Shown here: one piece after another, positions 12,366 through 47,061 of the stretch | Position numbering within the stretch: position 1 is the stretch's first letter | How the letters are laid out: every line of letters begins with the position of its first letter | Assembly (NCBI GenBank): GCA_016210545.1 | Contig: JACQTY010000103.1 | Span: forward strand, 194 to 64,193 | Length of the DNA: 64,000 nucleotides | Source of the DNA: Chloroflexota bacterium | GTDB lineage: Bacteria; Chloroflexota; Dehalococcoidia; JACVQG01 | Direction: 5' to 3' | Made by a program: the position numbers and the translations under genes | Notes under the pieces: generated by a model | What the model saw: the letters and a program-made list of their open reading frames with translations, nothing else | Database searches by the model: none | Told to the model about the DNA's origin: nothing

Positions 12366-13982
<1,617 letters not shown>

Positions 13983-15488: not shown

Positions 15489-15517
15489 TTGACGATGTGG
15501 CTCAAGGAAGATATAAT
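15489..15517 (+). promoter_or_regulatory. candidate sigma70 promoter for the glycan island (TTGACG-N17-TATAAT)
   Basis: TTGACG at 15489-15494 and TATAAT at 15512-15517 with an exact 17-nt spacer, 36 nt upstream of the first radical SAM gene start (TTG 15553). Confidence 0.45.
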
Positions 15518-15552
15518 TAGGCGTACTAATTTTTCCGTGGAGATGACTCAGC

Positions 15553-17034
15553 TTGAGACAAATTAAGAAGGTACTCCTCATCAACCCCCCCTGGTACCGG
15601 CTTTTCGGTGAGGAGTCACCCAGTTCCCCTTTGGGGCTTTGCTATATCGGCGCCGTACTGGAACAAAACGGGTACGACGTAGCGATCTACAATGGCGATT
15701 TCTCCAAATCTGGCATTGGGTTGCCCTCGGCTACCAAGAAGACCACGATGTACGAGACCTACCTTCATGCCCTGCAGGACCCCGGCCACTCCATCTGGAG
15801 TGAGGTACGTGCCGTGGTCTCCCAGCAGAAGCCTGACGTGGTAGGCATCTCCCTTCGCACCTCGGCCTATGGCTCCGCCATAAACGTGAGCCGCATTGTA
15901 AAGGAACTGGACCCCACCATACCTGTAATATGGGGGGGCGCCCACCCTACCGTTCTGCCTGGCGAGGCAATCAACAACGCCAACGTAGACATCGTAGTAC
16001 GCGGCGAGGGTGAGAACACAGTCCTGGACATTTTAAGAAGCAGGGATAACCTGGAGAGTGTCCCCGGGATTACATACAAGAAAGATGGTCGGATTATTCA
16101 CAACCCGGACCGCGCCCTCATCCCCAACCTCGATGAGTTGCCCTTTCCCGCGCGCCACTTGATACTAGACTGGCAAAGCTGTCCTCCGGAAGCCTTGGGA
16201 AACATCTTCGCAACCCGCGGCTGCCCCTACGATTGCGTCTTCTGCGCCTCTCACAAAGTATGGAGCCGCAAGGTAAGGTACAGGTCAGCAGCCAATATCA
16301 TCGCCGAGCTTCAACACCTGCAGCAGAAGTTCGGTGTCCGCCAGTTCTCTTTTGAGGACGACAGCTTCACCGTGAACAAGAAGCTGGTCAGCGAATTCTG
16401 CAGCGGGCTCCTGAAGGCTGGATTGAAGATCAGGTGGAGATGCGAGACCAGGGTGGACCTCGTTACCAGGGAACTCGTAGAGCAGATGAAAGGGGCGGGA
16501 TGTGAGGAGATATTCCTGGGCCTGGAATCGGGCAGCCCTGAGACCTTGCGCCGATTAAAGAAGGGTATCACCGTTGAGCAGATGAATACGGCGGCGGGCG
16601 TTTTGCGGCAATCTGGTATACGCTTCAGCGCCTTCTTCATGATCGGGTTCCCCTGGGAGACAATGAAAGAGATAAACGAGACCCTGACGCTGATGAAGGA
16701 GTTGGACCCCTTTGCCATAAACCTGAGCATCGCCACTCCTTATCCCGGGACGGAGTTGCATAAGATATGTATCGAGGAGGGCGTGGTCTCGGGGAACATG
16801 GACTGGAGCACCTTTTTCCATCAGAGCCCCGATATGTTCTTCTCCAATAAGTTCTCGCGTCAAGAAGTCAAAGAGATTATCAAGAAAGCTCAGTTGATAG
16901 TTGAGCGGCATAACCGCATCAAGAAGCGGCAACTGGTCCTGTTCGAGCCGCTCTACGTGGCCAAGCGCGTCATCAAAGGCAGGTACTATTACCCCAAACG
17001 TCTGTGGAGTCTACTACGTTACATATCAGGTTGA
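15553..17034 (+). CDS. B12-binding domain radical SAM protein (class B rSAM), paralog 1
   Basis: TTG start. N-terminal cobalamin-binding Rossmann-like region (LLINPPWY...VVGISLRT...WGGAHPT...VVRGEGE). Radical SAM cluster motif GCPYDCVFC, and FLGLESGS and IGFPWET. Closest to paralog 4. Confidence 0.85.
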   Translation: MRQIKKVLLINPPWYRLFGEESPSSPLGLCYIGAVLEQNGYDVAIYNGDFSKSGIGLPSATKKTTMYETYLHALQDPGHSIWSEVRAVVSQQKPDVVGISLRTSAYGSAINVSRIVKELDPTIPVIWGGAHPTVLPGEAINNANVDIVVRGEGENTVLDILRSRDNLESVPGITYKKDGRIIHNPDRALIPNLDELPFPARHLILDWQSCPPEALGNIFATRGCPYDCVFCASHKVWSRKVRYRSAANIIAELQHLQQKFGVRQFSFEDDSFTVNKKLVSEFCSGLLKAGLKIRWRCETRVDLVTRELVEQMKGAGCEEIFLGLESGSPETLRRLKKGITVEQMNTAAGVLRQSGIRFSAFFMIGFPWETMKEINETLTLMKELDPFAINLSIATPYPGTELHKICIEEGVVSGNMDWSTFFHQSPDMFFSNKFSRQEVKEIIKKAQLIVERHNRIKKRQLVLFEPLYVAKRVIKGRYYYPKRLWSLLRYISG

Positions 17035-17086
17035 CGCCATCAGGACCGACCACGATCATGAGAGACATGTCAACGACCAGGAACGG

Positions 17087-19486
17087 ATGAACTTGCTCAA
17101 GACCTTCATACTGTTATCGATCGCGGCTCTGCTATCCTCCTGCGCTGCCTTCCCCTGGCTACCACAGAGGCAGACATTGCCTCTTGGGAGACTGACGGGA
17201 AACGCCAAGGACGCCGGCTCCGCTAAGGACGGCATGAATCTCGGCATGGTCGTGGACCTTACCGGCCCGCTGGCATTGGCAGGTAAAGACGCTATTGCCG
17301 GAGCAGAACTTGCCATAGAGCAGCTAAACGAGGCCGGCGGCATCAAAGAGCAGCGGGTACGCCTTTTGGTGAGGGACGCAGGCGGTGCCAAAGCGGCGGC
17401 TCAAGCCCAGTCCTTGGTTAGCGATTACCAGGTATCTGGCATCATTGCACCCCTGTCCAGTAATGATGCCTACTCCATCGCTCAAGCCGTGGAAAGACGG
17501 GCACTGGTTTTCACCTACGTCGCCAATGCTGCTTACATGACCACCGAATGGGAGACCCCCAAGTCTCTGTTTCAGATCGGCCCGAGCGACTATATGGAGA
17601 GCAAAGCCCAGGCAGTGGACCTCTCGGGCCAGAAATATGGAAGGTACTTTGTGGTTGGCGCGGACACCGTTGAAAGCAGGGCTCGGGTGAGCGCCTTCGA
17701 GGAATGGCTAGCAAAGCTGCAGCCTGGCGTCACCTTCCTGGGAGCGATGTGGCTCTCCCCGGGACAACATGTCTATGGGGCCGCCATAGACAAGGCTCTA
17801 GCAGCTCAGCCAGACCTGGTTTACTCTACGCTTGAAGGCAGCGATCTGGAGGCTTTCACCCGGCAAGCGAAAGCACGGGGTTTTTTCGAAAGGGTGGCGT
17901 TTACAGCCCCCTACGACGTAGGTGTACTTCAATCATTGAAGAGCGACATGGTCTCAGGAGTCCGAGCCTACTCTCGGGCGCCATTCTTTGCGCTGAGCAG
18001 CGCGCCAGCCATGGCCTTTGTCCAAAGATACTGGGCCAACACCGGCAAATATCCTTCCGACGCTGCCGTTTTGGCGTATGAAGCAGCAAGGGTTTGGGCG
18101 CAAGTAGGTGCTAGCAGTGATTCCCTGAGCTGGAGTGACCTCCTGAGGGTGGCGGAGGGAATGAAGTTTGAATTCCTGATGGGCAGCGGGTATTTGCGGA
18201 GCCTGGACCACCAGAGTAGCCTCGGCTCGTTTGTCGGCTACACCCAGTGGAGCGACACATACGGGTTTATGACGTATCGTGGTCTCAAATACTTGTCCGC
18301 TGACGGTCTGTGGCGACCAGAGGGAGAGGTGAAAGAGATAAAAGAGCGGCCGCCAGCTAGCAAGTTGGCTATGGTCTCTGATATTTCCAAAGAGTTAGCT
18401 TCAGTTGTCAAAGACGCCGGCGCCGCAGCCGAGCTTGCCGTAGAGGAGATAAACAGAAATGGCGGTCTGCTGGCGCGGCAGGTGAAGTTAGTCCAGCAGG
18501 ATGCATCGGACGATGCCCAGAGGACCGCGGAGAAGTTGGAGGAGCTTATTATCGGTGGCGGGGTGTCGGCAGTCATCGGGCCAGTGAGCAATAGCACAGC
18601 GGCGCAAGTGATAGGCATTGCCAAGGTACGCGACGTAGCAATGTTTTTTAGCTACGCGAATAGCGAACGTCTCACGATGAAGTTGTACAACGAAAAGGTT
18701 TTCCAGGTAGGACCCAGTACGTATATGACCGGGCGTCTGCAAGCTCTGGCCCTTTCGGAAGAGAAATACACTCGCTATTATCTCCTGGGCCCCCGCATTG
18801 GAGCAGCCCAGGAGGAAGCGAACGCATTCAAGGAGTGGATGCAGAAACTAAGGCCCGACGTGAGATTCGTGGGCGAGGTCTGGCTGCCGATGGCTACTCA
18901 GGACTACGCGCCGGCAATCAACACGATATTGGCAGCCAGGCCCGAGATGGTCTATTCAAACTTACAGGGAGAGGACCTTGTCCGGTTTACACGCCAGGCA
19001 AAAAGCCAGAAGTTTTTTGAACAAGTAGCTTTTGCTGCTTCCTATGACGTGGGCGTACTTCAGGAGCTAAAGGGAGACATGCCCTCAGGGGTAAAAACGT
19101 TCGCCCGCGCCCCTTTCTTCGCCTCGGATGACCCGGGGCTAAAGCAGTTTGTAAACCAGTACCGTGCTCGGACATCTCTCTACCCTTCGGACGCAGCCGT
19201 ACTTACCTACCAATCGGTTATGCTGTGGGCATTTGCCGTAAGCAATGCCAATAGCGTTACCGGATATCATATAAGCCGGTTCCTGGGAGGAAGGCAATAC
19301 GCAAGCCTTTTCGGTCCCCGGATACTCCGATCCGTGGACCACCAGGAAAACGCAGGCATCTTTACGGGCTATACTGAGTGGAGTAACGAATACGGTTTCA
19401 TGGTCTTCAGGGACACGAAGTATCTTCCACCAGAAACTGTGTGGCGTTCGCCCGGAGAGGTTAGCGCCATCAGGCTAGCGCCTTAG
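17087..19486 (+). CDS. lipoprotein with two tandem type-1 periplasmic binding (LivJ/ANF-receptor-like) domains
   Basis: Start at MNLLKTFILLSIAALLSSCAAF (lipobox) after an AGGAA SD. The two halves are homologous, for example FTRQAKARGFFERVAFTAPYDVGVLQSLKSDMVSGV versus FTRQAKSQKFFEQVAFAASYDVGVLQELKGDMPSGV. Confidence 0.7.
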   Translation: MNLLKTFILLSIAALLSSCAAFPWLPQRQTLPLGRLTGNAKDAGSAKDGMNLGMVVDLTGPLALAGKDAIAGAELAIEQLNEAGGIKEQRVRLLVRDAGGAKAAAQAQSLVSDYQVSGIIAPLSSNDAYSIAQAVERRALVFTYVANAAYMTTEWETPKSLFQIGPSDYMESKAQAVDLSGQKYGRYFVVGADTVESRARVSAFEEWLAKLQPGVTFLGAMWLSPGQHVYGAAIDKALAAQPDLVYSTLEGSDLEAFTRQAKARGFFERVAFTAPYDVGVLQSLKSDMVSGVRAYSRAPFFALSSAPAMAFVQRYWANTGKYPSDAAVLAYEAARVWAQVGASSDSLSWSDLLRVAEGMKFEFLMGSGYLRSLDHQSSLGSFVGYTQWSDTYGFMTYRGLKYLSADGLWRPEGEVKEIKERPPASKLAMVSDISKELASVVKDAGAAAELAVEEINRNGGLLARQVKLVQQDASDDAQRTAEKLEELIIGGGVSAVIGPVSNSTAAQVIGIAKVRDVAMFFSYANSERLTMKLYNEKVFQVGPSTYMTGRLQALALSEEKYTRYYLLGPRIGAAQEEANAFKEWMQKLRPDVRFVGEVWLPMATQDYAPAINTILAARPEMVYSNLQGEDLVRFTRQAKSQKFFEQVAFAASYDVGVLQELKGDMPSGVKTFARAPFFASDDPGLKQFVNQYRARTSLYPSDAAVLTYQSVMLWAFAVSNANSVTGYHISRFLGGRQYASLFGPRILRSVDHQENAGIFTGYTEWSNEYGFMVFRDTKYLPPETVWRSPGEVSAIRLAP

Positions 19487-19571
19487 AATTATGAGATTCA
19501 TTCCCTCTTTTACATTCAGCATAGCCGAAATCCTCTCTACATTCGCCTCCTGGCAAAAGCTAAGACGACAC

Positions 19572-20843
19572 ATGGCGTCGCCTTTCTACAAAAATGCCTA
19601 TTATATGCTGGCTAACTCGGGCGTCGCTGCCCTGACCGGGTTTTTCTTCTGGCTGGTATCAGCACGCTTCTATACCGCCAGAGACGTGGGGTTGGCGTCG
19701 GCCACTCTTTCATCTGTGGTTTTTCTTGCCTCCATAGCCGATATGGGGTTGAGCATCAGCCTCATCCGTTTCCTTCCCAGCGCCACCAACCGGCTAAGTC
19801 TGATCAACACCTCTTTCACCGTAGGCGTTCTTGCTTCCTTTCTGGCAGGCGCCATTTTCTTAACAGGCCTAAATCTATGGTCTCCGGCCCTGCTGTTAGT
19901 CAGGGAGAACCCCTTGCTGGCGTCATTGTTCTTACTTTTGTTACCCCTTTCTGCCGTTTCCGTCATGGGAGACCGCGTGTTCATAGCCCTGCGGATAGCT
20001 AAGTATGGCTTTATCCGGCATCTGTTAATAATCCTGGAAATACCCCTTGCCGTGGCGCTGGTATCGTGGCTGCACGTCGCGGGTATTCTAATGGCTGCGG
20101 GAATAGCGGTAGGTCTATCTGTAGCTTTTAGTCTCTTTGTGCTGCTACCCCGCATCCAGCGAGGCTACTTCCCGTGGCCGGGTTTGCAGAGAGAGTACCT
20201 GAAGCAGACATTCGGCTATTCTATGGGCAACCATGTCTCTTTTCTTCTCCTGGGTGCGCCAGGCTGGATATTCCCCTTGCTGGTAGTGAACTTGCTGGGA
20301 CCGGAGCAGAATGCCTACTTTTACATCTCTTGGACAATAGGTGTCACTCTTGCTGCGATACCCTCAGCCATTTCTTACTCTTTCTTTGCCGAGGGTTCTC
20401 ACGATGAGAACGGGCTTCTCCATTTTGCCACCAGTGCCCTCAAACTGTCCCTGTTGCTGGTTGTTCCGGCCATCGCCGTAATTTTCGTTGTGAGCAATAG
20501 ACTGCTGCTCCTCTTCGGAAGGGCTTATTCTGAGGAGGGTCTGCTTTTGCTCCGGGTGCTGGCGCTTTCAACCTTACCCGGCACCTTCAACACAGTATAT
20601 TTGACATACAGGAGAGTGACCAAGGAAGTTGGACTGGTACTGGGAATCAGCGGGGCAATCGCTTTGCTCTCACTGGTTGCTGGTTATCTACTGGTTCCTC
20701 GCCTGGGTGTTCTGGGTGCAGGGTTAGGTTATTTAGGGGCGCAGACAGTAGTAGCGTTGTGGCTGGGAGCTAACCTGTACGTCAGGAATCTCAGTGCCAG
20801 GGGACACAAGACCGAGAAGGTTGAAGAAAATGTCAGGCGATAG
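19572..20843 (+). CDS. polysaccharide/oligosaccharide flippase (MOP superfamily, Wzx-like)
   Basis: About 12 predicted TM helices across 424 aa with Wzx-like hydrophobic topology. Start at MASPFYKNAYYML. Confidence 0.65.
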   Translation: MASPFYKNAYYMLANSGVAALTGFFFWLVSARFYTARDVGLASATLSSVVFLASIADMGLSISLIRFLPSATNRLSLINTSFTVGVLASFLAGAIFLTGLNLWSPALLLVRENPLLASLFLLLLPLSAVSVMGDRVFIALRIAKYGFIRHLLIILEIPLAVALVSWLHVAGILMAAGIAVGLSVAFSLFVLLPRIQRGYFPWPGLQREYLKQTFGYSMGNHVSFLLLGAPGWIFPLLVVNLLGPEQNAYFYISWTIGVTLAAIPSAISYSFFAEGSHDENGLLHFATSALKLSLLLVVPAIAVIFVVSNRLLLLFGRAYSEEGLLLLRVLALSTLPGTFNTVYLTYRRVTKEVGLVLGISGAIALLSLVAGYLLVPRLGVLGAGLGYLGAQTVVALWLGANLYVRNLSARGHKTEKVEENVRR

Positions 20844-22806
20844 GAAGATTCTTTTTGTAGCTCCGCGCTGGCAGCCATTCAGTAGCCTCAAACCTCATCT
20901 ATTGAAGCTGGCAAAGAGTGGGGACGAGGTGATTGTGCTCACCAAGGTTCCCTTGCCAGATGGCGACGTCAATCGCCTGATGCAACTTGGCTGTAGCTCG
21001 GTGCGGCCCTTGGACAGCTACCTGAGCCACAAAGAGATAGATGAAATCCGCTCTGAAGTCGTGAGACTGATAGAGGGGCTGCCGCAAGCCTCTCCGGATT
21101 TTGCCCGGGCTGTGGACTACAAGGGGATATCCCTGTGGCAACTCGCCGAAATGGCAACCTTCTACCCGGTTTTCGATGTTGTTCGCTGTTTACAGGCGAT
21201 GAGCCGTGCCCTGGAGCAAGAAAAGCCCGACGAAATTTGGGCATGGCAGGACCGGGGGCCCAATCTTTTCTGGCACGACGTCCCCTGGCGCTCGTTAGGA
21301 GCATTTGCTGAGTACTGGCTGCACTCCCGTGTTATAGATTATAATCAGCTAATTGCACAGTTGGCTGCCTCCGCCGGGGTGAAGTTCCGTCCACTTCTGT
21401 TGCCAGCATGGTTCAGAGGAATTGCTCCTTTAGCCGGAAGGATGGTCGGCTTTGCCTACAGGCTTTACCTGGAGCATCAAGAACGCAGAAACTCCAAGCG
21501 TTCGAACCGATCAACAAGGCCGCCAAATCCGGGAGTGGAGAACGGGGTCATGATAATGTCCGGCGGCGTCAGCACCGACTACGTCGCCATCCCCATCGCC
21601 CAGGCTATCGAGAACGAGACGGGCACCAGGGCTTTTGTAGCCCGGCTGGCCAGACATGTGAGGACCGAGGAGTGCGAGTTGCTGGACCAGGAAGGAGTCC
21701 ACTATATATTCTGCCAGGAATTCGCTACCGAAGATGTTTTCTCGGCAGCGAGGAAAGACAGGAGTAGACTGGTAAGCAGTTGGCGGGAAATTCAAAGGCT
21801 ACCGGAAATCGGCCAGTATCTGAAGTGGGGTGGTATCTCCTTGTGGGCAGTTCTTCGCGGTGACGTGGAATTGATGCGCCATGGCTACTTGCCTGTTGTA
21901 ATGAAAAATATTGAGATATTCTGTCGGATTGTAGACCAGACTAAGCCTGGGGCTTTAGTGATCACGAATTTCTATTCACCTGAGGAGCGAGCGGCAATTT
22001 GTATTGCCCACAAGAGGAATATACGTACTCTAGCTGTGCCATATTTCCCATTGGCAGAAGGGTCTCCGCCTATCAATATGATGATAGACACGATTGCGCT
22101 TTGGGGTGATGATATGAAGGAATTCCTCATACGGAGGACAATACCATTGCCCCACCACATGGTGATCACAGGCAATCCAGCCTTCGAATATAGGTGCCGA
22201 AAAGCCGGAATAGAGTTACCATACAAAGCTGCGGGTGTTTGGGGCCCGGAAGTAAAACAAAAGAGGGTGCTTTTCATTTCTCAGTCAGCCCAACAAGACT
22301 ACACGGAGGAGAAAAGGCGTTTACATTTGGAATGCGTATATAGCGCCGCAGGCTGTCTACCAGACATCTTGTTTGTGGTGAAGCTGCATCCCATGGAAAG
22401 CATCAACATGCACCTGAAGTTGATAAAATCAATGAAGCTAATAAATGTGGTCATTGAACAGAACGCCGACCTGTATCAGACAATCCTGGCCAGCGACCTG
22501 GTGGTAACCTTTTCCTCTACCGCGGGGTTCGAGGCCATGCTGCTGGACAAGCCGATAATAGCCATAAACTTGGTGGGGGAGCCTATTGGTAGAATACCCT
22601 ATCTGCGAGATGGCGCAGCCTACGGGGTTTACGAGAGGGAGCGGTTGCCACAGGCCATCGAATGGGTATTGACTGACCCGGACATAAGACGGCAACTGTC
22701 TCTCAAGCGCCAACAGTCTTTGCGCCGCTACCTCTACCAGTGCGATGGCCAGTCCGCAAACCGTATCGCCGCAGAGATATTTGATATGGTCGGAGAAACA
22801 CGGTGA
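20830..22806 (+). CDS. GT-B fold glycosyl/glycerophosphotransferase-like enzyme (TagF/KpsS-like)
   Basis: C-terminal LHPME...ADLYQTILASDLVVTFSSTAGFEAMLLDKPIIAIN resembles the CDP-glycerol glycerophosphotransferase / capsule-synthesis C-terminal signature. The N-terminal half is a second Rossmann-like domain. Confidence 0.5.
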   Translation: MSGDRKILFVAPRWQPFSSLKPHLLKLAKSGDEVIVLTKVPLPDGDVNRLMQLGCSSVRPLDSYLSHKEIDEIRSEVVRLIEGLPQASPDFARAVDYKGISLWQLAEMATFYPVFDVVRCLQAMSRALEQEKPDEIWAWQDRGPNLFWHDVPWRSLGAFAEYWLHSRVIDYNQLIAQLAASAGVKFRPLLLPAWFRGIAPLAGRMVGFAYRLYLEHQERRNSKRSNRSTRPPNPGVENGVMIMSGGVSTDYVAIPIAQAIENETGTRAFVARLARHVRTEECELLDQEGVHYIFCQEFATEDVFSAARKDRSRLVSSWREIQRLPEIGQYLKWGGISLWAVLRGDVELMRHGYLPVVMKNIEIFCRIVDQTKPGALVITNFYSPEERAAICIAHKRNIRTLAVPYFPLAEGSPPINMMIDTIALWGDDMKEFLIRRTIPLPHHMVITGNPAFEYRCRKAGIELPYKAAGVWGPEVKQKRVLFISQSAQQDYTEEKRRLHLECVYSAAGCLPDILFVVKLHPMESINMHLKLIKSMKLINVVIEQNADLYQTILASDLVVTFSSTAGFEAMLLDKPIIAINLVGEPIGRIPYLRDGAAYGVYERERLPQAIEWVLTDPDIRRQLSLKRQQSLRRYLYQCDGQSANRIAAEIFDMVGETR

Positions 22807-24611: not shown

Positions 24612-24617
24612 ACCCAG

Positions 24618-25796: not shown

Positions 25797-25798
25797 GC

Positions 25799-27232: not shown

Positions 27233-27234
27233 TA

Positions 27235-27292
27235 GCATGTAACATTTACTTTTGATACTGGTGGCACAGGCGTCTCTGCCTGTGCAATGGCG
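27235..27292 (+). ncRNA. copy 1 of a conserved ~35-nt motif plus GC hairpin (unknown RNA/regulatory element)
   Basis: AGTAGCATGTAACATTTACTTTTGATACTGGTGGCAC followed by the hairpin GCACAGGC-gtctct-GCCTGTGC. Second copy at 58985-59043 has the same motif and a different but structurally equivalent hairpin. Confidence 0.4.
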
Positions 27293-28390: not shown

Positions 28391-28559
28391 GTAAAGGTGA
28401 AGCACTTTCGGAGGGGCTTTCTCCATAGCACCTGCACGCAAATGAACAAGACGTAACGGACTTATATAACAAGTTGACACTGGACACCGAACCGGACAAA
28501 GGGTGGTGTACCTGCGGTTTCCTGGCCTTTCTGAATGTTTCACACGAGAGGACAGTTCC

Positions 28560-29612: not shown

Positions 29613-29615
29613 GCC

Positions 29616-35512: not shown

Positions 35513-35677
35513 GTGAGAATGAATGTCCAATGATTCTTGCAACTGAGGATTAGCCGTGGAGAGGGCGGCTCGTAACGAGCGCAAATGTTGGGCTGTGTCT
35601 TGATTCCAGATCAAGACGGTTAGGGAACTCTGAGTACCGACCGCTAACTTTTTCTTGCCCGCGCCGTTTTACCAGAG

Positions 35678-38008: not shown

Positions 38009-38150
38009 TACGAACGCGGCAGTGGGTGCAAGAACACTCTGGGTATTGTATATTTATCTTGAGCCAGAGCCATCACGGGGACGTTCAAGAAACTATCTGC
38101 ACTGGACCGGTCTCGCTAGTGGAAGATTGCTTATTGGGGGATAGAGCCAT

Positions 38151-39014: not shown

Positions 39015-39180
39015 CGCAGCTAGAGTTTTGAAGATCGGGAACAGACGGTTGACGAAAGAGCGCTTTATTGAGGATAGCTCCCTGGCCCTGGTGCCAGTGG
39101 GAATATCACTGGACATAGATACGGAGATGGATATTCTCATGGCCGAAGTATTGCTCGCGGCGAGGAGGAAAGCAGGATGA
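38989..39180 (+). pseudogene. C-terminal remnant of a second NeuA/PseF-like cytidylyltransferase
   Basis: Translation ...RVLKIGNRRLTKERFIEDSSLALVPVGISLDIDTEMDILMAEVLLAARRKAG* aligns to the C-terminus of the 37310-38008 product (...AVYVVGRDWLMAKDWLIGDNSLAFVMAPERSLDIDTEMDLVIAEAFLRGRPG*). Its TGA overlaps the ATG of radical SAM paralog 5 (ATGA). Confidence 0.6.
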
Positions 39181-40679: not shown

Positions 40680-41601
40680 AGGGACGTTTTTGGATACTGT
40701 CTCCTGCAATCTCTGCGGTGGTGTTGAGTCTGTTGTCATAGCTACCAAAGGTCGCTATGATAGTTCCTGCGTTTTTGTTCAGTGCCGGTCGTGCGGTCTA
40801 GTGTACATGAACCCGCGCCTTACGACGGACGAATTGGCTGATTTCTATAAGAGAGCCTATCGTGATTTGTATAACCCCGGCTGTACACCTGAAAGATTCG
40901 ATCGCGACACATTGCCGACCGCTGTGGCCAATGTCAAATGGGTTGTGAAGTTCACCAAACCAGGTGGCCCAAAGACAATCTTAGATATTGGCTGTGCTAC
41001 GGGAAACTTCCTGCGCCTCTTGTCAGAGGCTGGTTGGGAGAATTGGGGCGTTGAGCCTGACTCAGGTTATGCTTCTTACGGCCAGTCGAAAGGATTAAGC
41101 ATCATTAATGGCACACTGGAGAATACGAGAATACCCGAATACTGCTTTGACGCGGTGACGATGTTTCATACGCTTGAACACCTGGTTAGTCCGTTAGAGT
41201 CGTTGCACAAGGTACGAAGTCTGCTCAAGCCCGAGGGCAAACTGTTTGTGGTCGTACCCAACCTGAACAATCTTAGCCTTAGAATACGAAAACGCTATGC
41301 AAACTACTACTTCCAGCCGGCGCACAATTATGAGTTTACCATTAGAACACTGAAGCGTATGTTGCAGAGAGCTGGTTTTTCAGTCGTGAGCTGCAAAACC
41401 AGGGGCATACAGATTGGTGTGCCTGGAGGTTTGGACAGGGTGGTAGAGACTTCGCAAGGTACCATGGCTACTTTTTTTCGGCGGTTGCTGGTAATGCCGT
41501 ACAGGTTCACGAGGAACGTAGCCGGGGTCATAGTGGGACTGCCCGGGTGGGGTGAGGAGATACGCGTTGTCGCCAGGAAACAGCCAGAGGCGCATCCATG
41601 A
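40621..41601 (+). CDS. class I SAM-dependent methyltransferase with an N-terminal Zn-ribbon
   Basis: CNLCGG...CRSCG (CxxC x2) followed by ILDIGCATGNFL (motif I) and LKPEGKLFVVVPN. The probable real start is TTG at about 40692 after an AGAGGGA SD. Confidence 0.75.
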   Translation: MKKAVASLCLSKSKRITGRRGTFLDTVSCNLCGGVESVVIATKGRYDSSCVFVQCRSCGLVYMNPRLTTDELADFYKRAYRDLYNPGCTPERFDRDTLPTAVANVKWVVKFTKPGGPKTILDIGCATGNFLRLLSEAGWENWGVEPDSGYASYGQSKGLSIINGTLENTRIPEYCFDAVTMFHTLEHLVSPLESLHKVRSLLKPEGKLFVVVPNLNNLSLRIRKRYANYYFQPAHNYEFTIRTLKRMLQRAGFSVVSCKTRGIQIGVPGGLDRVVETSQGTMATFFRRLLVMPYRFTRNVAGVIVGLPGWGEEIRVVARKQPEAHP

Positions 41602-42692
41602 TACCCATCGCAGAACCCATTCTGGGCGAGGCCGAAATGGCCAACGTAGTCCAGGCGGTGAAGAGCACCTGGATAAGCTCCAAGGGGGAGTTCATCCCTC
41701 TTTTTGAGAAGCAGTTTGCCGGCTATTGCGGAGCAAAACACGGGGTCGCGGTGAGCAACGGCACGGTGGCCCTGCATCTGGCCTTGAAGGCCATGGACAT
41801 AAAAGAGGGTGACGAGGTGATCGTGCCCACGCTCACGTTCATAGCTACGGCTAACGCCGTGCGCTATGTGGGCGCAACCCCCGTCTTTGTGGACTCTCAT
41901 CCTGAGTACTGGTGTATAGACCCCTCCCGAATCAGAGGCAGGATAACTAAGCGAACGAGGGTTATAATCCCGGTGCACCTTTATGGACACCCTTGCGATA
42001 TGGACGCCATAAACACCCTGGCTAAAGAATTTGGCCTCCGGGTAATAGAGGATGCCGCTGAGGCTCATGGGGCGCTCTATAAAGGCAAGAAGGTGGGAGG
42101 GCTAAGCCACATATCCTGTTTCAGCTTCTATGGCAACAAGCTCATCACCACCGGCGAGGGTGGCATGTGTCTTACCAGTGACAGGCTCCTGGCTGAAAGG
42201 ATGCAAGCGCTTAGAGACCACAGCATGAACCCGGTAAAGCGCTACTGGCATGATGAGGTTGGCTTCAATTACCGGATGACTAATATCCAGGCAGCTATCG
42301 GTGTGGCCCAGTTGCAAAGGCTGGACGAGTTTATTGAGCAGAAGCGCCGACTGGTCGGCTGGTACAATTCTCGCCTGGGGGAAGTATCCGGAGTAACTTG
42401 CCCTCCGCAGATGCCCTGGGCCAGAAGTGTCTACTGGATTTACAGCGTGCTGCTCAGTGGGTGTTCCGAGGAGAGACGGGACCGCGTGATGGCGGGGTTG
42501 ATGAAAGATGGCATTGAAACAAGGCCAATCTTCTACCCTATTCATATCCAACCCCCGTACTCAAGCGGGGAACGGTACCCCGAGGCGGAGAGGATTGGGG
42601 CCTGCGGCATCAGTCTGCCCTCAGCGCTGACACTTACTGAAGACAATGTGGATTATGTCTGCCAACGCCTCGTGGCCAGGTTACGGAGTTAG
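41598..42692 (+). CDS. DegT/DnrJ/EryC1/StrS-family aminotransferase (PseC/LegC-like)
   Basis: MIPIAEPILGEAE...SNGTVALHLAL...FSFYGNKLITTGEGGMCLTSD...FNYRMTNIQAAIGVAQL. Confidence 0.85.
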   Translation: MIPIAEPILGEAEMANVVQAVKSTWISSKGEFIPLFEKQFAGYCGAKHGVAVSNGTVALHLALKAMDIKEGDEVIVPTLTFIATANAVRYVGATPVFVDSHPEYWCIDPSRIRGRITKRTRVIIPVHLYGHPCDMDAINTLAKEFGLRVIEDAAEAHGALYKGKKVGGLSHISCFSFYGNKLITTGEGGMCLTSDRLLAERMQALRDHSMNPVKRYWHDEVGFNYRMTNIQAAIGVAQLQRLDEFIEQKRRLVGWYNSRLGEVSGVTCPPQMPWARSVYWIYSVLLSGCSEERRDRVMAGLMKDGIETRPIFYPIHIQPPYSSGERYPEAERIGACGISLPSALTLTEDNVDYVCQRLVARLRS

Positions 42693-42776
42693 ATGTGACG
42701 GGCTTCCATATAACATGAAAACTGTCGGCATGAGCGAAGATCGCTATTTCAGTTTATTAGATGAGCTTTAAGACTA

Positions 42777-43823
42777 ATGAGAATAGAAATTAGGAAAAAG
42801 CTGCTTGGGGATGGGGATCCCTGCTTCATTATTGCTGAAGCTGGGGTAAACCACAACGGCGATTTTGAGGTGGCCAAGAAGCTGGTAGATGCCGCTTTCG
42901 AGGCTGGAGCTAACGCTGTCAAGTTTCAGACCTTCTCGACGGAGAAGCTGGTGACTCAAACCGCTCCCAAACCTGAATATCAAAAGAGGGGAACCCCGGC
43001 AAGGGAGTCCCAATTTAGTATGCTCAAGAGCCTGGAGCTTCCCTTAAAGCAACAGCGGGAACTGAAACTATACGCTGATAGAACAGGCATCATTTTTCTT
43101 TCGACCCCGTATGATGAAGAAAGCGTGGACTTTCTGGTGGAGATAGGTGCGCCTGCCCTGAAAATCAGCTCCGCCGACATAACGAACTTGCCTCTTTTGG
43201 CCTACGCAGCCTCCAAGGGGATTCCCATAATCCTATCTACAGGAATGTCCACTCTCGGGGAGGTGGAGGAGGCGGTTGGCGCCATTAGAGATGCAGGCTC
43301 ACCGCCCCTAGCGTTGTTGCACTGCAATTTCAACTATCCGGCCGCGTACGAGGACGTTAACCTGCGGGCAATGGGCACGTTAAGGCAGGCATTCCAGGTG
43401 CCTGTTGGATACTCCGACCATACCCCTGGGTACGAGGTGTGTCTGGCCGCAGTGGCCCTGGGAGCAGTCATCATCGAGAAGCACTTTACTCTGGACAGGG
43501 GGCTGCCGGGGCCGGACCACAAGGCATCTATCGAGCCCGGCGAAATGAGGGAGCTAGTCGCCGGTATCAGGAAGGTTGAGAAGGCCCTCGGTTCGCCTGT
43601 AAAGCGGCCAAGTGGGGGCGAGATCCCCAACCGGGCCATCTCCCGCAGAAGCATTGTGGCAGCGGTAGACATTGCGGCCGGCGCGACGATCTCACGGGAA
43701 ATGCTCACGGCAAAGCGGCCGGGTAGCGGGCTGCAACCTGCGCATATTGCCGATCTGGTGGGGCGGAAGGCCAGGTATAGCATGAGCAAGGACGAGCTAA
43801 TAGACTGGGAGAAGGTAGAGTAA
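42777..43823 (+). CDS. N-acetylneuraminate synthase family (NeuB/PseI/LegI-like nonulosonic acid synthase)
   Basis: CFIIAEAGVNHNGD, VKFQTF and KISSADITNLPLL, followed by a C-terminal SAF domain (about 60 aa). Confidence 0.85.
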   Translation: MRIEIRKKLLGDGDPCFIIAEAGVNHNGDFEVAKKLVDAAFEAGANAVKFQTFSTEKLVTQTAPKPEYQKRGTPARESQFSMLKSLELPLKQQRELKLYADRTGIIFLSTPYDEESVDFLVEIGAPALKISSADITNLPLLAYAASKGIPIILSTGMSTLGEVEEAVGAIRDAGSPPLALLHCNFNYPAAYEDVNLRAMGTLRQAFQVPVGYSDHTPGYEVCLAAVALGAVIIEKHFTLDRGLPGPDHKASIEPGEMRELVAGIRKVEKALGSPVKRPSGGEIPNRAISRRSIVAAVDIAAGATISREMLTAKRPGSGLQPAHIADLVGRKARYSMSKDELIDWEKVE

Positions 43824-44458
43824 TGAAGGTCATCATCGTTGGGGCGGGCGGCCAGGCAAGGGTTGTCTACGAGATACTGAGTCTTGATCGGCGCGTGGAA
43901 GTCGTGGCCTTTGTTGACAACGTATTCCACGGAGCCGACGAAAGGATCATGGGCGTGCCTGTGCTGGGAGACCATTTGGTAGTCGTCAAGCTTATAAAAA
44001 ACGGGGTCAAAGGAGCCATTATCGCTATAGGAGATAACAAGATAAGGGCCGAGCGCTTCGCGGAGTGCAGCGAGATGGGCCTGGAAATGATAAACGCTAT
44101 CGCGCCCACTGCCCACATCGCCCACAGCGCCAGGATTGGGAAGGGGGTGGTACTTGCTACCAGCGCCATCGTCTCCACGGGCGCCCACATTGGCAACAAC
44201 GTAATCATAAACACGGGTGCGATAGTGGAACATGAGGACATTCTTGAAGACCACGTCCATATTGGCCCGGGGACGGTGCTTGCTGGCAGGGTCACCGTAA
44301 AGAGAGGAGCTTTTGTCGGCCTGAGATCCGTGGTGAAGGAAAATATTACCATCGGCGAGAATGTCACCGTGGGGGCCGGCTCTGTAGTGCTGGAAAATAT
44401 TCCCGATAACGCGGTCGTGGCGGGTTCCCCGGCGAGACTGTTGCACTATAGCCAGTAA
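43823..44458 (+). CDS. NeuD/PglD-like hexapeptide-repeat sugar acetyltransferase
   Basis: N-terminal Rossmann-like MKVIIVGAGGQARVV followed by left-handed beta-helix hexapeptide repeats (IGKGVVLATSAIV...IGNNVIINTGAIVEHE...). Confidence 0.8.
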   Translation: MKVIIVGAGGQARVVYEILSLDRRVEVVAFVDNVFHGADERIMGVPVLGDHLVVVKLIKNGVKGAIIAIGDNKIRAERFAECSEMGLEMINAIAPTAHIAHSARIGKGVVLATSAIVSTGAHIGNNVIINTGAIVEHEDILEDHVHIGPGTVLAGRVTVKRGAFVGLRSVVKENITIGENVTVGAGSVVLENIPDNAVVAGSPARLLHYSQ

Positions 44459-44469
44459 GAGGGCGCAAA

Positions 44470-45366
44470 TTGGATGTCTATGTCTCTACAGGTTGCCTCA
44501 AGGATGGAAAGGATGTCATTCGCGTTCTGGATGGCTACCGCTCGGCAAGTTTCCGTTACATCGAGTTGGGAGCGTCCCACGAATACTCTGCGGATATAGT
44601 CGGCTGTCTGGAAAAACAGCCAGCCCGTTTCTTGGTCCACCATTACTTCCCGCCACCGCCCAATGCTTTCGTTCTTAACCTGGCCTCAGCCAGCCCGGAA
44701 ATCCTGTACCGCTCCTTGCAGCAGATCGATCGATCTCTCGATTTGTGCCGCAAACTAGGTTCGCCGTTACTGTCGGTCCACGCCGGATTTACCGCCGACC
44801 CGAGCCCGGGGCTGACATTTGTTGGACACGAGCCGCAACCCTATGAGAAGGCTTTTGACATCTTTGTGGACTCCATAAAGAGAATAGACGCCTCGGCAAG
44901 GGAATACGGGGTCAGGCTGGCGATTGAGAATAATGTGCTAGCCAAATACAATATGGTGAACGGTACAAATCCCTACCTCTTGCTCTGTCGGGCTGAGGAG
45001 TTCGAGGAGTTTTTCAGAAGAGTGCCCTCTGATAACGTAGGCATCTTGCTGGACCTCGGCCATCTCCAGGTTAGCTCGCATAATCTGGGCTTCAACAAAG
45101 ATGGATTTATAGATAAACTGGAGGATAAGGTCTTTGCCCTCCATATTCATGACAATAATGGAGAAAAGGATGAGCATCTGGGCTTGAGACCCGGCTCATG
45201 GGTATGTCGGGTTCTCAAAACAAGAAGCTTCGCCGCGCTCCCCTGGATACTGGAGAGCGCAAACCTAACTATCGCTGAAATTCGACAAAACCTGGAACTC
45301 CTCGATGGTCAGCGATCGCAGATGACACCACTCGGCAACTGTTCGCAAATGAACCGTCCCATTTGA
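44470..45366 (+). CDS. xylose-isomerase-like TIM-barrel sugar phosphate isomerase/epimerase
   Basis: RLAIEN, LLDLGH and ALHIHDN metal-ligand motifs typical of the AP_endonuc_2 / sugar isomerase family. Confidence 0.65.
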   Translation: MDVYVSTGCLKDGKDVIRVLDGYRSASFRYIELGASHEYSADIVGCLEKQPARFLVHHYFPPPPNAFVLNLASASPEILYRSLQQIDRSLDLCRKLGSPLLSVHAGFTADPSPGLTFVGHEPQPYEKAFDIFVDSIKRIDASAREYGVRLAIENNVLAKYNMVNGTNPYLLLCRAEEFEEFFRRVPSDNVGILLDLGHLQVSSHNLGFNKDGFIDKLEDKVFALHIHDNNGEKDEHLGLRPGSWVCRVLKTRSFAALPWILESANLTIAEIRQNLELLDGQRSQMTPLGNCSQMNRPI

Positions 45367-45379
45367 CAGCGAGTCCACC

Positions 45380-46030
45380 GTGCCAATAATCGCAATAATA
45401 GGAATTGACGGCAGCGGCAAGACGACGCAGGCCAGACTCCTGACGCAAAGGCTAACTGAGGCCGGCCTCGCCGCCAGATATATCCGTCCCGACTACGTCC
45501 TCGTCGAGCTTTTGTCGCGACTGAAGTTGCCCCTAGACCGTCTCCTCCCCTCCCCCCGCCAGAGGCGCGCCGGGCCGCAGTCTGATTCCCCGATCGATCA
45601 AAGCAAACGGAACGTAACCGGTCTCGTCATGGGCATAGCCGGCTTCTTCTACGTCTGGATGAGCTACCTTGTCCTCGCCTGGTATGGCCTCGGCGGTAAG
45701 ACAGCCGTCTGCGACCGTTACTTCTACCAGTTCTTTTACGACCTCTATGGCAGCCGCGGCAGCCGGAGAGCGGCCCGGTTCTTCCCCCGGCCTGGAAGGG
45801 CGTACTTTCTGGACGGCAGCCTGGAGCTATTCCGGAGCAGGATGACGAACCCCTTTGACAGGAAGGCCTCGTCGGACTACTACGCCCAGGTGCATTCATT
45901 ACTCAGCGAGATGGCCAGCCGGTACCACTTTACCACAGCGGATGCCGGTCAAGATGCCAGCATTATCAGCGATTTCATCTTCGCCGACTGCAGCCGGAAG
46001 CTCTACGGCCTGGGGCGGAGCGAGGCTTGA
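45380..46030 (+). CDS. thymidylate-kinase-like P-loop kinase with a hydrophobic insertion
   Basis: Walker A IIAIIGIDGSGKTTQ, the DRY-type motif AVCDRYFYQFF and a LID-like RAYFLDGSLELFRSR. A roughly 60-aa insertion contains a hydrophobic helix VTGLVMGIAGFFYVWMSYLVLAWYGL. Confidence 0.5.
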   Translation: MPIIAIIGIDGSGKTTQARLLTQRLTEAGLAARYIRPDYVLVELLSRLKLPLDRLLPSPRQRRAGPQSDSPIDQSKRNVTGLVMGIAGFFYVWMSYLVLAWYGLGGKTAVCDRYFYQFFYDLYGSRGSRRAARFFPRPGRAYFLDGSLELFRSRMTNPFDRKASSDYYAQVHSLLSEMASRYHFTTADAGQDASIISDFIFADCSRKLYGLGRSEA

Positions 46031-47061
46031 CGGTGGACACAGAAGCGTTGCGGTTGCTCCTCTCCCTGGCAGCTCCCGAGGACTACGGTTCCACCGCAAG
46101 GGTCCCGTACGCCTTGGAAAAGGGCCTGGTGAAGCGTGTAGTCCGGCTGGCCAAAGCCAATGGCCTATTCTACTGCGTAGCCCGGGGCATCAATACGCAG
46201 GAACAAGACCTATCGTTCCTGAAAGAGGCGCTGGCCCAGGAAGAGAGAAAGCGTCAGGCATACCTGGAGACCATCCGCCTGCTGAACGACATCGAGGCCA
46301 GGCACGGCATCAGATTCATGCTGATCAAGGCATGTACATCGGTGCCACACGTCCCAAGGGATATCGATATCTTCGTATCCCCCATGGAAAAGTCCAGCTT
46401 CAGCCAAGCCCTCAAAGACTCCGGTTTCAAATGCGTCTACGACAGCCCGGCAGAGTCCTCCTACGCCAGCCCCGGCCATATGGAACTGGACATCTACACC
46501 AGCATCATCTACGCCCACAAGACGTTCTTCGACGAAGACTTCCTGTGGCAGGCCAAGACTATCGAAGAAAAGGACGGACTCAAGTACCCGGCGCTCCAGC
46601 CATATGCCAATTACCCGCTCATCCTAGTGCACAGTCTCTTCGGTCACCGGGTCATGTCCCTCTTGGACTTCCTCCAGCTCCAGTACTTGCGCCGCAGCAT
46701 GCAACCCGATGCCAGCAGGGACTACGCCTACCTGATGGGGTGGGGCAAGGTATTTGACATAGCAGTCGAAAGGTTAGACGTCATCGAGAAGATGGTCAGC
46801 GCTCGGTCGCCGGGGATCTCGTTTCCCTTGCTGTTCGACCAGCGCTTCGTTATGGCGTGCTTCGCTAAACTGGGGGACGGCGGAGAGGACGAGTTCCATG
46901 CCTCACTGTCGCTACGGCTCTCACTATTCATAGACCGGCTGGTCCACGAGCTAAGAAAGTCGCCTTTTTATGAGCCTCTGGAGCGGCTCAAGTTCCCAGG
47001 AAGGGTTGCCACCAACCTGGGCCTCATCGTGCGAAGGTTGAGGGGCGACCGCAAGGCGTAG
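46027..47061 (+). CDS. putative nucleotidyltransferase-fold protein (PF14907-like)
   Basis: MLIKACTSVPHVPRDIDIFVSP resembles the hG[GS]...DxD core of Pol-beta-type NTases. Start overlaps the upstream kinase stop. Confidence 0.4.
   Translation: MTVDTEALRLLLSLAAPEDYGSTARVPYALEKGLVKRVVRLAKANGLFYCVARGINTQEQDLSFLKEALAQEERKRQAYLETIRLLNDIEARHGIRFMLIKACTSVPHVPRDIDIFVSPMEKSSFSQALKDSGFKCVYDSPAESSYASPGHMELDIYTSIIYAHKTFFDEDFLWQAKTIEEKDGLKYPALQPYANYPLILVHSLFGHRVMSLLDFLQLQYLRRSMQPDASRDYAYLMGWGKVFDIAVERLDVIEKMVSARSPGISFPLLFDQRFVMACFAKLGDGGEDEFHASLSLRLSLFIDRLVHELRKSPFYEPLERLKFPGRVATNLGLIVRRLRGDRKA

Follow-up and report, generated by a model that had tools for sequence, protein, structure and literature searches.

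A 64,000-nucleotide stretch of DNA from a Chloroflexota bacterium (GenBank assembly GCA_016210545.1, contig JACQTY010000103.1, positions 194 to 64,193; hereafter the window) holds, at positions 15553 to 47061, an island of 26 genes in which five genes for B12-binding radical S-adenosylmethionine (SAM) proteins lie among sugar-nucleotide, glycosyltransferase and export genes. The island is explained here as a variable, cassette-built cell-surface glycoconjugate locus of Dehalococcoidia-related Chloroflexota in which the radical SAM enzymes tailor the glycan, most likely by methylation, and this reading is given a probability of about 0.6. The link of the radical SAM genes to glycan biosynthesis is well supported; we infer the methylation chemistry and the exact substrates of the enzymes. 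The most useful result reaches past the window: the fifth paralogue, rSAM5, belongs to a widespread and apparently undescribed class-B radical SAM group whose genes lie inside clusters for nonulosonic acids.

The domain content of the 26 genes and the conserved gene order agree with the first-pass annotation of this DNA, which had described a glycoconjugate biosynthesis island of about 25 co-directional genes with overlapping stops and starts. By open reading frame (ORF) listing and Pfam searches, all 26 ORFs between 15553 and 47061 were placed on the + strand with no competing minus-strand genes, and 12 of the 25 consecutive junctions overlap or abut. The further claim that the island forms a single biosynthetic unit was too strong in view of gaps of 298 to 326 bp, a low-G+C rSAM4 gene, an inserted MNT-HepT gene, a gene relic and an interrupted rSAM2 gene; the island is a mosaic of cassettes.

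Five B12-binding radical SAM paralogues

The five paralogues were found where they had been predicted, each with both diagnostic domains above the gathering scores:

15553..17034, + strand, rSAM1, class-B radical SAM protein of 493 aa (PF02310 70.9 bits, PF04055 85.9 bits)
25799..27232, + strand, rSAM2, class-B radical SAM gene with an in-frame TAG (PF02310 102.6 bits, PF04055 116 bits)
32280..33725, + strand, rSAM3, class-B radical SAM protein of 481 aa (PF02310 49.4 bits, PF04055 87.5 bits)
33843..35351, + strand, rSAM4, class-B radical SAM protein of 502 aa (PF02310 85.5 bits, PF04055 91.3 bits)
39177..40679, + strand, rSAM5, class-B radical SAM protein of 500 aa (PF02310 63.8 bits, PF04055 85.8 bits)

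The N-terminal, Rossmann-type B12-binding domain (PF02310) scored 49.4 to 102.6 bits in all five against a gathering score of 32.1, and the radical SAM core (PF04055) 85.8 to 116 bits against 29.5. No sixth copy lies elsewhere in the 64-kb window. Pairwise identity among the five is 27 to 43%, with rSAM4 and rSAM1 at 43%, and the CxxxCxxC motif occurs in each as CP[YF]xCxFC (CPYDCVFC at residue 224 of rSAM1, CPYNCTFC in rSAM3). The rSAM5 protein is 100% identical to MBI4287986.1.

In the structures of OxsB, TsrM and TokK, base-off cobalamin is contacted by Gly-x-Ser/Thr-x-X, Gly-Gly and Gly-Glu motifs (review by Bridwell-Rabb, Li and Drennan, PMC9204698), and in an alignment all three were present in five of five paralogues. 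The GG pair (G128 G129 of rSAM1) and the EGE triplet (residues 152-154) are invariant, and the first motif reads GISLR, GITGT, GVTMW, GITVM and GISAH from rSAM1 to rSAM5. Judged from these sequence features, the paralogues are classed as class-B-type (B12) radical SAM proteins. The fifth residue of the first motif (near residue 102 of rSAM1) is unlike in each paralogue (Arg, Thr, Trp, Met, His) and falls in the column of Asn186 of OxsB, Arg69 of TsrM and Tyr74 of TokK. The position is flagged in review as a hotspot that tunes cobalamin chemistry and is potentially determinative of it (PMC9204698), so the five paralogues may not share one chemistry.

None of the five reached the cutoff of a named NCBIfam family, with best scores of 170 to 223 bits against cutoffs of 481 to 750. 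The top models were HpnJ, BchE and ApyD; HpnJ gave 170 to 208 bits against 578, the upper value being that of rSAM1, for which it was the top model, and AprD4 gave 74 to 129 bits against 500. Cutoffs were missed for the BchE, HpnJ, HpnR, PhpK, AprD4, ApyD and MCR glutamine methylase equivalogs and for others. The profile searches with PF02310, PF04055 and the class-B subfamilies hence gave class-B domains and no characterised non-glycan subfamily. The closest solved structure was AprD4 (6fd2; E = 6e-34 for rSAM1 and E = 4.5e-25 for rSAM5), and further close structures were 9ccb (an unnamed radical SAM protein), OxsB and TokK.

HpnJ and AprD4 act on amino sugars, and AprD4 has a B12-type domain without using cobalamin. 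HpnJ, BchE and AprD4 thus share with the island proteins the best-scoring models (HpnJ, BchE) and the closest structure (AprD4), and differ from them in that the paralogues reach 74 to 223 bits against cutoffs of 481 to 578 and that no hopanoid, bacteriochlorophyll or aminoglycoside genes lie near the island. The substrate of Fom3 is CMP-linked. Cobalamin radical SAM methylases that act on sugars are GenK and GenD1 (gentamicin), Fms7 (fortimicin) and MoeK5 (moenomycin) (PMC9204698). Like these enzymes and Fom3, the paralogues have an N-terminal B12 domain followed by the radical SAM core, the CxxxCxxC motif and the three cobalamin motifs, and like GenK and Fom3-type methylases they stand in a context of carbohydrate or cytidylylated substrates. 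Unlike the antibiotic methylases they have no family-level membership, the PhpK, KedN5 and other models scoring far below their cutoffs, and unlike actinomycete antibiotic clusters their setting is a surface-glycan or nonulosonic acid locus in uncultivated Chloroflexota, candidate phyla radiation (CPR) bacteria and DPANN archaea.

Sugar-nucleotide, transfer and export genes

The genes that surround the paralogues in the island are as follows:

17087..19486, + strand, lipoprotein in which two Peripla_BP_6 domains stand in tandem (290 bits over two stretches)
19491..20843, + strand, Wzx/MOP-type oligosaccharide flippase of 450 aa with at least 7 hydrophobic segments (assigned through homologues)
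20794..22806, + strand, soluble 670-aa protein whose C-terminal domain is nonulosonic-acid-transferase-like (TagF/GT-B-like; match at residues 500-665)
22803..24611, + strand, orphan polytopic membrane protein of 602 aa with at least 11 transmembrane (TM) segments and a C-terminal soluble domain (from hydropathy)
24618..25796, + strand, GT4 glycosyltransferase a (Glycos_transf_1 120.9 bits, Glyco_transf_4 76.5 bits)
27287..28204, + strand, SAM methyltransferase 1 (Methyltransf_11 57.7 bits)
28503..31158, + strand, amino-deoxyhexose module of GMD-like 4,6-dehydratase, cupin and DegT aminotransferase 1
28503-29612, + strand, GMD-like 4,6-dehydratase (GDP_Man_Dehyd 403.8 bits; gmd equivalog 395 bits against a cutoff of 415)
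29616-30032, + strand, cupin of 138 aa (no Pfam match; WbuC 33 bits against a cutoff of 42)
30025-31158, + strand, DegT aminotransferase 1 (LegC family 371 bits against a cutoff of 420)
31122..32279, + strand, GT4 glycosyltransferase b (Glycos_transf_1 126.6 bits)
35678..36454, + strand, SAM methyltransferase 2 (Methyltransf_11 85.2 bits)
36451..37317, + strand, membrane protein of the CDP-alcohol phosphatidyltransferase family, about 6 TM segments (PF01066 32.8 bits, cutoff 22)
37310..38008, + strand, CTP_transf_3 cytidylyltransferase, putative CMP-nonulosonic acid synthetase (PF02348 102 bits against 22.6)
40621..41601, + strand, SAM methyltransferase 3, extended at its N terminus by about 110 aa (Methyltransf_23 88.8 bits)
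41598..44458, + strand, nonulosonic acid core of LegC-like aminotransferase, NeuB/LegI-type synthase and NeuD/PglD-type N-acetyltransferase
41598-42692, + strand, LegC-like aminotransferase, DegT2 (LegC family 372 bits against a cutoff of 420)
42777-43823, + strand, NeuB/LegI-type synthase (NeuB_NnaB, TIGR03569, 458 bits against 399.65; PseI 294 bits against 340)
43823-44458, + strand, NeuD/PglD-type N-acetyltransferase (NeuD_NnaD, a NeuD/PglB/VioB model, 205.7 bits against a cutoff of 160.8)

Pfam bore out the three SAM methyltransferases at 27287, 35678 and 40621 (the third gene overlaps both rSAM5 and DegT2), the two GT4 enzymes at 24618 and 31122 and the CDP-alcohol phosphatidyltransferase at 36451. 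All members of the expected nonulosonic acid module were also found, namely the DegT protein at 41598, NeuB at 42777, the NeuD-like protein at 43823 and the NeuA/PseF-like protein at 37310. The best equivalog of the last was PseF (163 bits against a cutoff of 205.7), and homologues of it at 32 to 45% identity sit in nonulosonic acid loci that bear rSAM5 orthologues. From the predicted gmd, cupin and DegT module the GMD-like and DegT proteins stood, and the cupin had only the sub-threshold WbuC score. The NCBIfam scores of the sugar genes point to a Neu/Leg-type nonulosonic acid and a GDP-linked amino-dideoxyhexose.

The 670-aa protein had been called TagF-like. A borderline match to Glyphos_transf (PF04464; 25.5 bits against 22.1, profile positions 226-366 only) lies in its C-terminal 150 residues, and residues 500-665 fit better the BFO_1060 family (NF046086; 84.5 bits against a cutoff of 200) and TIGR04396, "surface carbohydrate biosynthesis" (59 bits). 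The N-terminal 500 aa had no Pfam match. The protein resembles the BFO_1060 family at a score below the membership cutoff. BFO_1060 (strain 92A2) is a homologue of the Tannerella forsythia pseudaminic/legionaminic acid (Pse/Leg) transferases Tanf_01245 and TFUB4_00887, proven by knock-out (PMC5420450). The flippase gave no direct Pfam match; the Wzx assignment holds through homologues at 37 to 57% identity, which carry PF01943, PF13440 and PF01554 and are named oligosaccharide flippase.

The 602-aa membrane protein (locus tag HY671_06055) had no Pfam or PDB match and 5 homologues among 5.8 billion proteins, all Chloroflexota/Dehalococcoidia save one (24% identity, DUF1616). These homologues all occur in the same kind of locus, and G105-D106...H110 (RGDGLAHLG), between the third and fourth hydrophobic segments, is invariant. 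The AlphaFold2 model was unusable (mean pLDDT 40). Given so few homologues, that model and the empty database searches, GT-C enzyme, Wzy and ligase were each considered for this protein and it could be assigned to none of them. PDB sequence searches with the flippase and the 670-aa protein, and with a TIM-barrel protein from the tail of the island, returned nothing useful.

The ORF at 16901-19486 encodes the lipoprotein and no glycan enzyme. The ORF opens at 16901, and the likely start is M63, near 17087, with the signal and lipobox sequence MNLLKTFILLSIAALLSSC (lipobox LLSSC); the 134-nt overlap at 16901, the largest among the island junctions, is an ORF-calling artefact. No transporter genes lie near this tandem Peripla_BP_6 lipoprotein of about 800 aa, which could serve as an acceptor glycoprotein at the surface or as a component that binds glycans.

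From these HMM-based functions a pathway can be proposed, in an order of steps that we infer. The GMD-like dehydratase, cupin and DegT aminotransferase would make a nucleotide-linked amino-dideoxyhexose, and the second DegT protein, the NeuD-type acetyltransferase, the Neu/Leg-type synthase and the cytidylyltransferase a CMP-activated legionaminic-type nonulosonic acid. The glycan would be assembled by the two GT4 enzymes and the protein related to the Tannerella Pse/Leg transferases and exported by the Wzx-type flippase, with membrane steps by the orphan polytopic protein and the CDP-alcohol phosphotransferase-family protein. The five class-B radical SAM enzymes may tailor the sugars or activated intermediates, most likely through cobalamin-dependent methylation of an unactivated carbon as by GenK, GenD1, MoeK5 and Fom3, and rSAM5 may act on the nonulosonic acid or its precursor, possibly in the CMP-linked form. 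Together with the three ordinary methyltransferases they would yield a heavily methylated glycan; the "heavily C-/O-methylated" product proposed in the first-pass annotation is plausible.

Legionaminic acid clusters comprise LegB, C, H, G, I and F in Campylobacter, and Tannerella forsythia has a Leg locus with a Leg/Pse transferase. Like Leg/Neu clusters, the island has a synthase above cutoff, a NeuD/LegH-type acetyltransferase, LegC-like aminotransferases and a putative CTP_transf_3 synthetase, and like the Tannerella locus it has a transferase domain related to BFO_1060 and Tanf_01245. Unlike them it holds neither a LegG/NeuC 2-epimerase nor a LegB/PseB-type dehydratase, and unlike the nonulosonic acid pathways described in the literature searched it has class-B radical SAM and methyltransferase genes embedded in it. 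It resembles Wzx-dependent O-antigen, capsule and S-layer loci in its one-strand sugar-nucleotide genes, GT4 enzymes, MOP flippase, G+C content below that of the flanks and cassette variation. It is unlike such loci in having no recognisable initiating phosphoglycosyltransferase, Wzy, Wzz or ligase and, instead, the orphan 602-aa protein, the CDP-alcohol phosphotransferase-family protein and the tandem substrate-binding lipoprotein.

Gene order in relatives and the rSAM5 group

Three related contigs were compared with the window, and gene order is kept in all of them: L169, a Joint Genome Institute metagenome contig (L087 is an identical sequence), L168 from Dehalococcoidia bacterium GCA_015661045.1, and the more distant L167. 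In L169 two divergent GT4 genes are followed by rSAM1 (78% identity to the window), the lipoprotein (56%), the flippase (84%), the transferase-like protein (71%) and the membrane protein (81%), then by a fragmented radical SAM gene, another radical SAM gene, GT4a (78%) and an intact rSAM2 (87%), and at the end by GMD (75%), cupin (68%), DegT (79%), GT4b (60%) and rSAM3 (87%). The order in L168 is membrane protein, GT4a, rSAM2 (88%), GMD, cupin, DegT, GT4b and rSAM3 (88%), followed by a 281-aa methyltransferase, methyltransferase 2 (88%) and the CDP-alcohol phosphatidyltransferase. Identity over the shared block is 56 to 87% for L169 and 58 to 88% for L168; GT4a is 65 to 78% identical in the three contigs, and in L168 and L169 GT4b is 58 to 60% and the GMD-cupin-DegT block 67 to 79% identical. 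L167 retains the genes for the transferase-like and membrane proteins, GT4a, GMD, cupin and DegT. It has zero radical SAM genes, and its four methyltransferases include a TylC3-type sugar C-methyltransferase (PF08421/PF08484).

Content varies at defined slots. The rSAM2 slot holds a radical SAM gene only in L168 and L169, a methyltransferase only in L167, and the interrupted rSAM2 gene with a methyltransferase in the window; methyltransferase 1 (27287) is absent from that position in L168 and L169. Where the window has rSAM4, L168 carries the 281-aa methyltransferase. This alternation of radical SAM and methyltransferase genes at the same slots is the main, circumstantial ground for favouring methylation as the chemistry of the former; the four methyltransferases of L167 and those beside the rSAM5 orthologues in L002, L004 and L005 point the same way. 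Among the four genomes, the window alone has an extra methyltransferase beside rSAM2. The lipoprotein gene keeps its place between rSAM1 and the flippase in L169 (4213-6687) and has diverged faster than its neighbours (56% against 71 to 84% identity). Directly behind the orphan membrane protein of L169, at 11834-12722, lie the 121- and 181-aa fragments of one split class-B radical SAM gene, so that loci of this type show the decay of such a gene for a second time.

Outside these relatives, rSAM1 relatives (36 to 48% identity) and rSAM3 relatives (39 to 42%) were found in metagenome contigs in the company of GT4, GMD-like, DegT and methyltransferase genes, at times also of NeuB, in loci that often have two to four radical SAM genes; the rSAM3 relatives lie in glycan loci L107 and L129. 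Loci that combine two to four class-B radical SAM genes with glycan genes are frequent, examples being L002, L045, L049, L104 and L169. The first-pass description of five such genes in a surface-glycan locus as highly unusual accordingly holds against characterised systems and the searchable literature and fails against metagenomes, in which multi-copy loci are common.

Homologues of rSAM5 at 41 to 68% identity are numerous and closer to it than its island paralogues (29 to 36%). In at least 15 loci, rSAM5 orthologues at 37 to 55% identity stand among NeuB, CTP_transf_3 (CTP3), DegT and PglD genes. The three loci with long flanks (L002, L004 and L005; 44 to 51% identity) all hold NeuB and CTP_transf_3. 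Also present there are DegT, PglD/hexapeptide or Epimerase_2 genes, additional genes for B12 radical SAM proteins, and methyltransferase genes, which flank the rSAM5 orthologues. L004 has a canonical Leg-type gene set, and L005 is an Elusimicrobiota metagenome-assembled genome (MAG). In L002 (16956-20779) the rSAM5 orthologue is accompanied by a NeuB-CTP_transf_3 fusion, a formyltransferase and a FolD/5-FTHF cyclo-ligase fusion, which suggests an N-formylated nonulosonic acid.

A scan was made with one genome per species (80 loci), in which neighbours were counted within 10 kb. Where the rSAM5 homologue was 37 to 45% identical, NeuB or CTP_transf_3 was present in 13 of 23 loci and NeuB in 11; below 37% identity either gene was present in 8 of 52 and NeuB in 3. 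At 45% or more neither gene was found in the four loci, three of them on contigs of 8.2 kb or less. In gene maps of MAGs from Nitrospirota, Thermodesulfobacteriota, Actinomycetota, Omnitrophota, Moduliflexus, "Deltaproteobacteria", Nealsonbacteria, Woesearchaeota and Nanoarchaeia, the rSAM5 orthologue lies between or overlaps NeuB, CTP3, DegT and PglD genes, with overlapping junctions between CTP3 and the radical SAM gene in L016 and between the radical SAM gene and NeuB in L015. In L016 and L061 CTP3 stands directly before the orthologue, and in L029 and L032 the two are at most about 0.7 kb apart. The window keeps the same CTP3-rSAM5 signature, as the start of rSAM5 is overlapped by a CTP3 relic (described below).

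No paper tying B12 radical SAM proteins to nonulosonic acid or surface-glycan loci was found in the literature searched, most subscription journals being outside its scope. It is tentatively proposed, as a somewhat doubtful step beyond these gene neighbourhoods, that the rSAM5 group is a new pan-prokaryotic cobalamin-dependent family that alkylates or otherwise radically modifies a legionaminic-type nonulosonic acid, probably free or CMP-activated. The taxa covered by this proposal are Chloroflexota, Nitrospirota, Thermodesulfobacteriota, Omnitrophota, Elusimicrobiota, Actinomycetota, CPR bacteria, and DPANN and Methanosarcinales archaea.

Cassettes, competing explanations and significance

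The remaining features of the island are as follows:

15489..15517, + strand, promoter-like site TTGACG-17-TATAAT (11 of 12 positions match), preceding the first gene, rSAM1
38151..39014, + strand, fused MNT (Polbeta nucleotidyltransferase) and HepT toxin-antitoxin-like gene (HepT-like 102 bits, Polbeta 60.7 bits)
38989..39180, + strand, relic of a second CTP_transf_3 gene (C-terminal 40 codons) in a 63-codon ORF whose stop overlaps the rSAM5 start
44470..47061, + strand, three tail genes for a xylose-isomerase-like TIM barrel, a P-loop (dTMP-kinase-like) protein and an NTP_transf_5 nucleotidyltransferase

The G+C content of the island is 0.544 against 0.58-0.59 in the flanks, and its larger intergenic gaps are 298, 326, 142 and 162 bp. 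The upstream flank carries rseP, dxr, cdsA, uppS, acyl-CoA dehydrogenase, frr, tsf, rpsB, AAA protein and solute-binding protein genes on the minus strand, after which come a chaperonin (GroEL) and a divergent M16 peptidase before the island begins; downstream lie hemerythrin, GATase, metallo-beta-lactamase-fold protein and ABC-2 transporter genes. The promoter-like site at 15489, where the first-pass annotation has its island begin, was the best in the region, as a consensus match only, the overall site count not exceeding shuffled expectation. No convincing internal terminator was found in the island. Promoters and terminators were about as numerous as in shuffled sequence, except that weak terminator-like hairpins were modestly in excess at 33-48.5 kb, and scans so near chance say nothing on operon structure. 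A cobalamin riboswitch or other RNA element over the island was considered and rejected, as Rfam at gathering scores had no match anywhere in the 64-kb window. The tail genes scored 90.4 bits (AP_endonuc_2), 33.3 bits (Thymidylate_kin, P-loop region only) and 39.6 bits (NTP_transf_5) and had no counterpart in any of about 170 fetched loci; a 147-aa ORF at 47140 (region to 47583) had no Pfam match.

The rSAM2 gene is interrupted by an in-frame TAG at 26888-26890, after which the frame stays open for 114 codons. Two intact 480-aa orthologues (86 to 87% identity) have Lys where the TAG stands, so a single AAG-to-TAG change suffices. No other assembly has the 363-aa product on record, so an assembly variant is conceivable, and the TAG is a recent nonsense mutation or such a variant. 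Pyrrolysine or programmed read-through was rejected as first choice, given the Lys in the orthologues and the absence of a tRNA gene from the 64-kb window. Further along, the MNT-HepT gene (G+C 0.50) lies between imperfect 50-nt direct repeats at 37940-37989 and 39106-39155 (76% identity), and the relic behind it matches residues 191-230 of the 37310 product with 50% identity (E = 2e-8); the MNT-HepT gene appears to have truncated a second cytidylyltransferase gene. The rSAM4 gene, with a G+C content of 0.459 (0.535 at third codon positions) against 0.53-0.59 (about 0.7) in its neighbours, looks like a recently acquired cassette, a low-G+C insert. The rSAM5-methyltransferase 3 pair is at 0.51 against 0.54-0.59.

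Several points weigh against the explanation of the island as a glycan locus with radical SAM tailoring by methylation. Only four of the five paralogues are intact in this genome, rSAM2 being interrupted, and the relic marks the locus as partly decaying. This radical SAM clade has no characterised enzyme, the closest matches among HMMs and structures are non-methylases (HpnJ, BchE and AprD4) far below cutoffs, and the slot-swapping argument for methylation is circumstantial. The 298- and 326-bp gaps weigh on co-transcription. No island protein matches the hydrolysing UDP/GDP-GlcNAc 2-epimerase (PF02350; NeuC/LegG), and no LegB/PseB-type dehydratase is present in the island (the LegB model gave 82 bits against 475 on the GMD-like protein); both genes may lie elsewhere in the genome. 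No island ORF gave a PF02397-, PF00953- or PF04932-type match for an initiating phosphoglycosyltransferase, Wzy polymerase or ligase, and without the first of these, glycolipid, polymer and glycoprotein products are indistinguishable. Arrays outside glycan loci also occur. In L075 (6768-15513, an Anaerolineae MAG) five B12-type radical SAM genes and a SPASM radical SAM gene have metG, moaA and rtcB nearby and no glycan genes recognised by Pfam, and in L162 (5665-14613) six radical SAM genes stand with no glycan genes recognised by BLAST against the island proteins only. Genes like rSAM2 occur in both arrays and genes like rSAM1 in L075. These arrays may serve peptide or other pathways, and they show the multi-copy arrangement to be a Chloroflexota habit. 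A rule that five class-B radical SAM genes make a glycan locus was rejected on the evidence of L075.

The radical SAM enzymes could instead act on sugars as non-methylases, through dehydration or deoxygenation, epimerisation, ring contraction or C-C rearrangement, with methyl groups coming from the three ordinary methyltransferases only. AprD4 (a diol dehydratase of an aminoglycoside sugar), HpnJ (glucosamine ring contraction) and OxsB offer models for this; AprD4 (6fd2) is also the closest structure of both rSAM1 and rSAM5, the fifth residue of the first cobalamin motif differs in all paralogues (R, T, W, M, H), and the top NCBIfam models, HpnJ and BchE, are non-methylases acting on a sugar or a tetrapyrrole (PMC9204698). 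The AprD4 and HpnJ matches are far below the family cutoffs, however, and radical SAM and methyltransferase genes swap at the same slots in syntenic loci. AprD4 is moreover cobalamin-free, whereas all five paralogues keep the GG, GE and GxS/TxX motifs, and this alternative is judged unlikely. More improbable still is a non-sugar target for some or all of the enzymes, such as a lipid head group or anchor, linked to the CDP-alcohol phosphotransferase, or a protein or peptide, for instance the tandem lipoprotein. Class-B families for lipids (HpnP/HpnR and a ladderane candidate) and for peptides or proteins (C-methylases of peptides synthesised by the ribosome and modified after translation (RiPPs), ApyD and Mmp10) match partially, the L075 array of rSAM1- and rSAM2-like genes with its SPASM gene lacks glycan genes, the lipoprotein gene is kept right after rSAM1 in L169, and the CDP-alcohol gene is conserved in L168. 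Relatives of rSAM1, rSAM3 and rSAM5 nevertheless consistently neighbour sugar-nucleotide and glycosyltransferase genes, rSAM5 orthologues overlap NeuB or cytidylyltransferase genes, and the island has no RiPP-associated Pfam domain above threshold, no screen aimed at a precursor peptide or recognition element having been made.

The chances are even that the island is a recombination patchwork of at least three cassettes, partly decayed, in which the number five reflects the accretion of interchangeable tailoring genes in a hypervariable surface-antigen locus and not five steps toward a single product. The in-frame TAG, the CTP3 relic with the MNT-HepT insertion between 50-nt repeats, the G+C contents of 0.46 (rSAM4) and 0.51 (rSAM5-methyltransferase 3), the fragmented gene in L169 and the slot-wise variation among the window and the three relatives all speak for it. 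The genes nevertheless stand close together on a single strand, many of them overlapping, and conservation across the head block and the hexose module amounts to 56 to 88% identity. A patchwork is also compatible with the preferred explanation, a glycoconjugate locus with radical SAM tailoring, and does not exclude it.

Taken alone, the window is of modest value, as one richly decorated case of a widespread pattern in which the island is not unique. Class-B radical SAM enzymes are among the largest pools of enzymes with unknown chemistry, and to our knowledge the few members that act on sugars belong to antibiotic pathways. Recognition by hosts and phages, like the glycosylation of flagellin and of S-layers, depends on nonulosonic acids as key surface determinants, and the modifications of these acids that we know of all use polar chemistry. 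A conserved class-B radical SAM gene in nonulosonic acid clusters of many phyla is a concrete, testable entry to possible new carbohydrate radical chemistry, with candidate substrates that enzymes can supply and DMB-LC-MS can detect, and could reveal new surface sugars in uncultivated anaerobes (Dehalococcoidia, CPR and DPANN). If the proposal is true, a class of C-modified sialic-acid-like sugars on uncultivated anaerobes has been overlooked, and the Chloroflexota island stacks up to five radical tailoring steps on one glycan. Such a radical SAM gene in nonulosonic acid clusters would also link surface-glycan composition to cobalamin availability in these communities.

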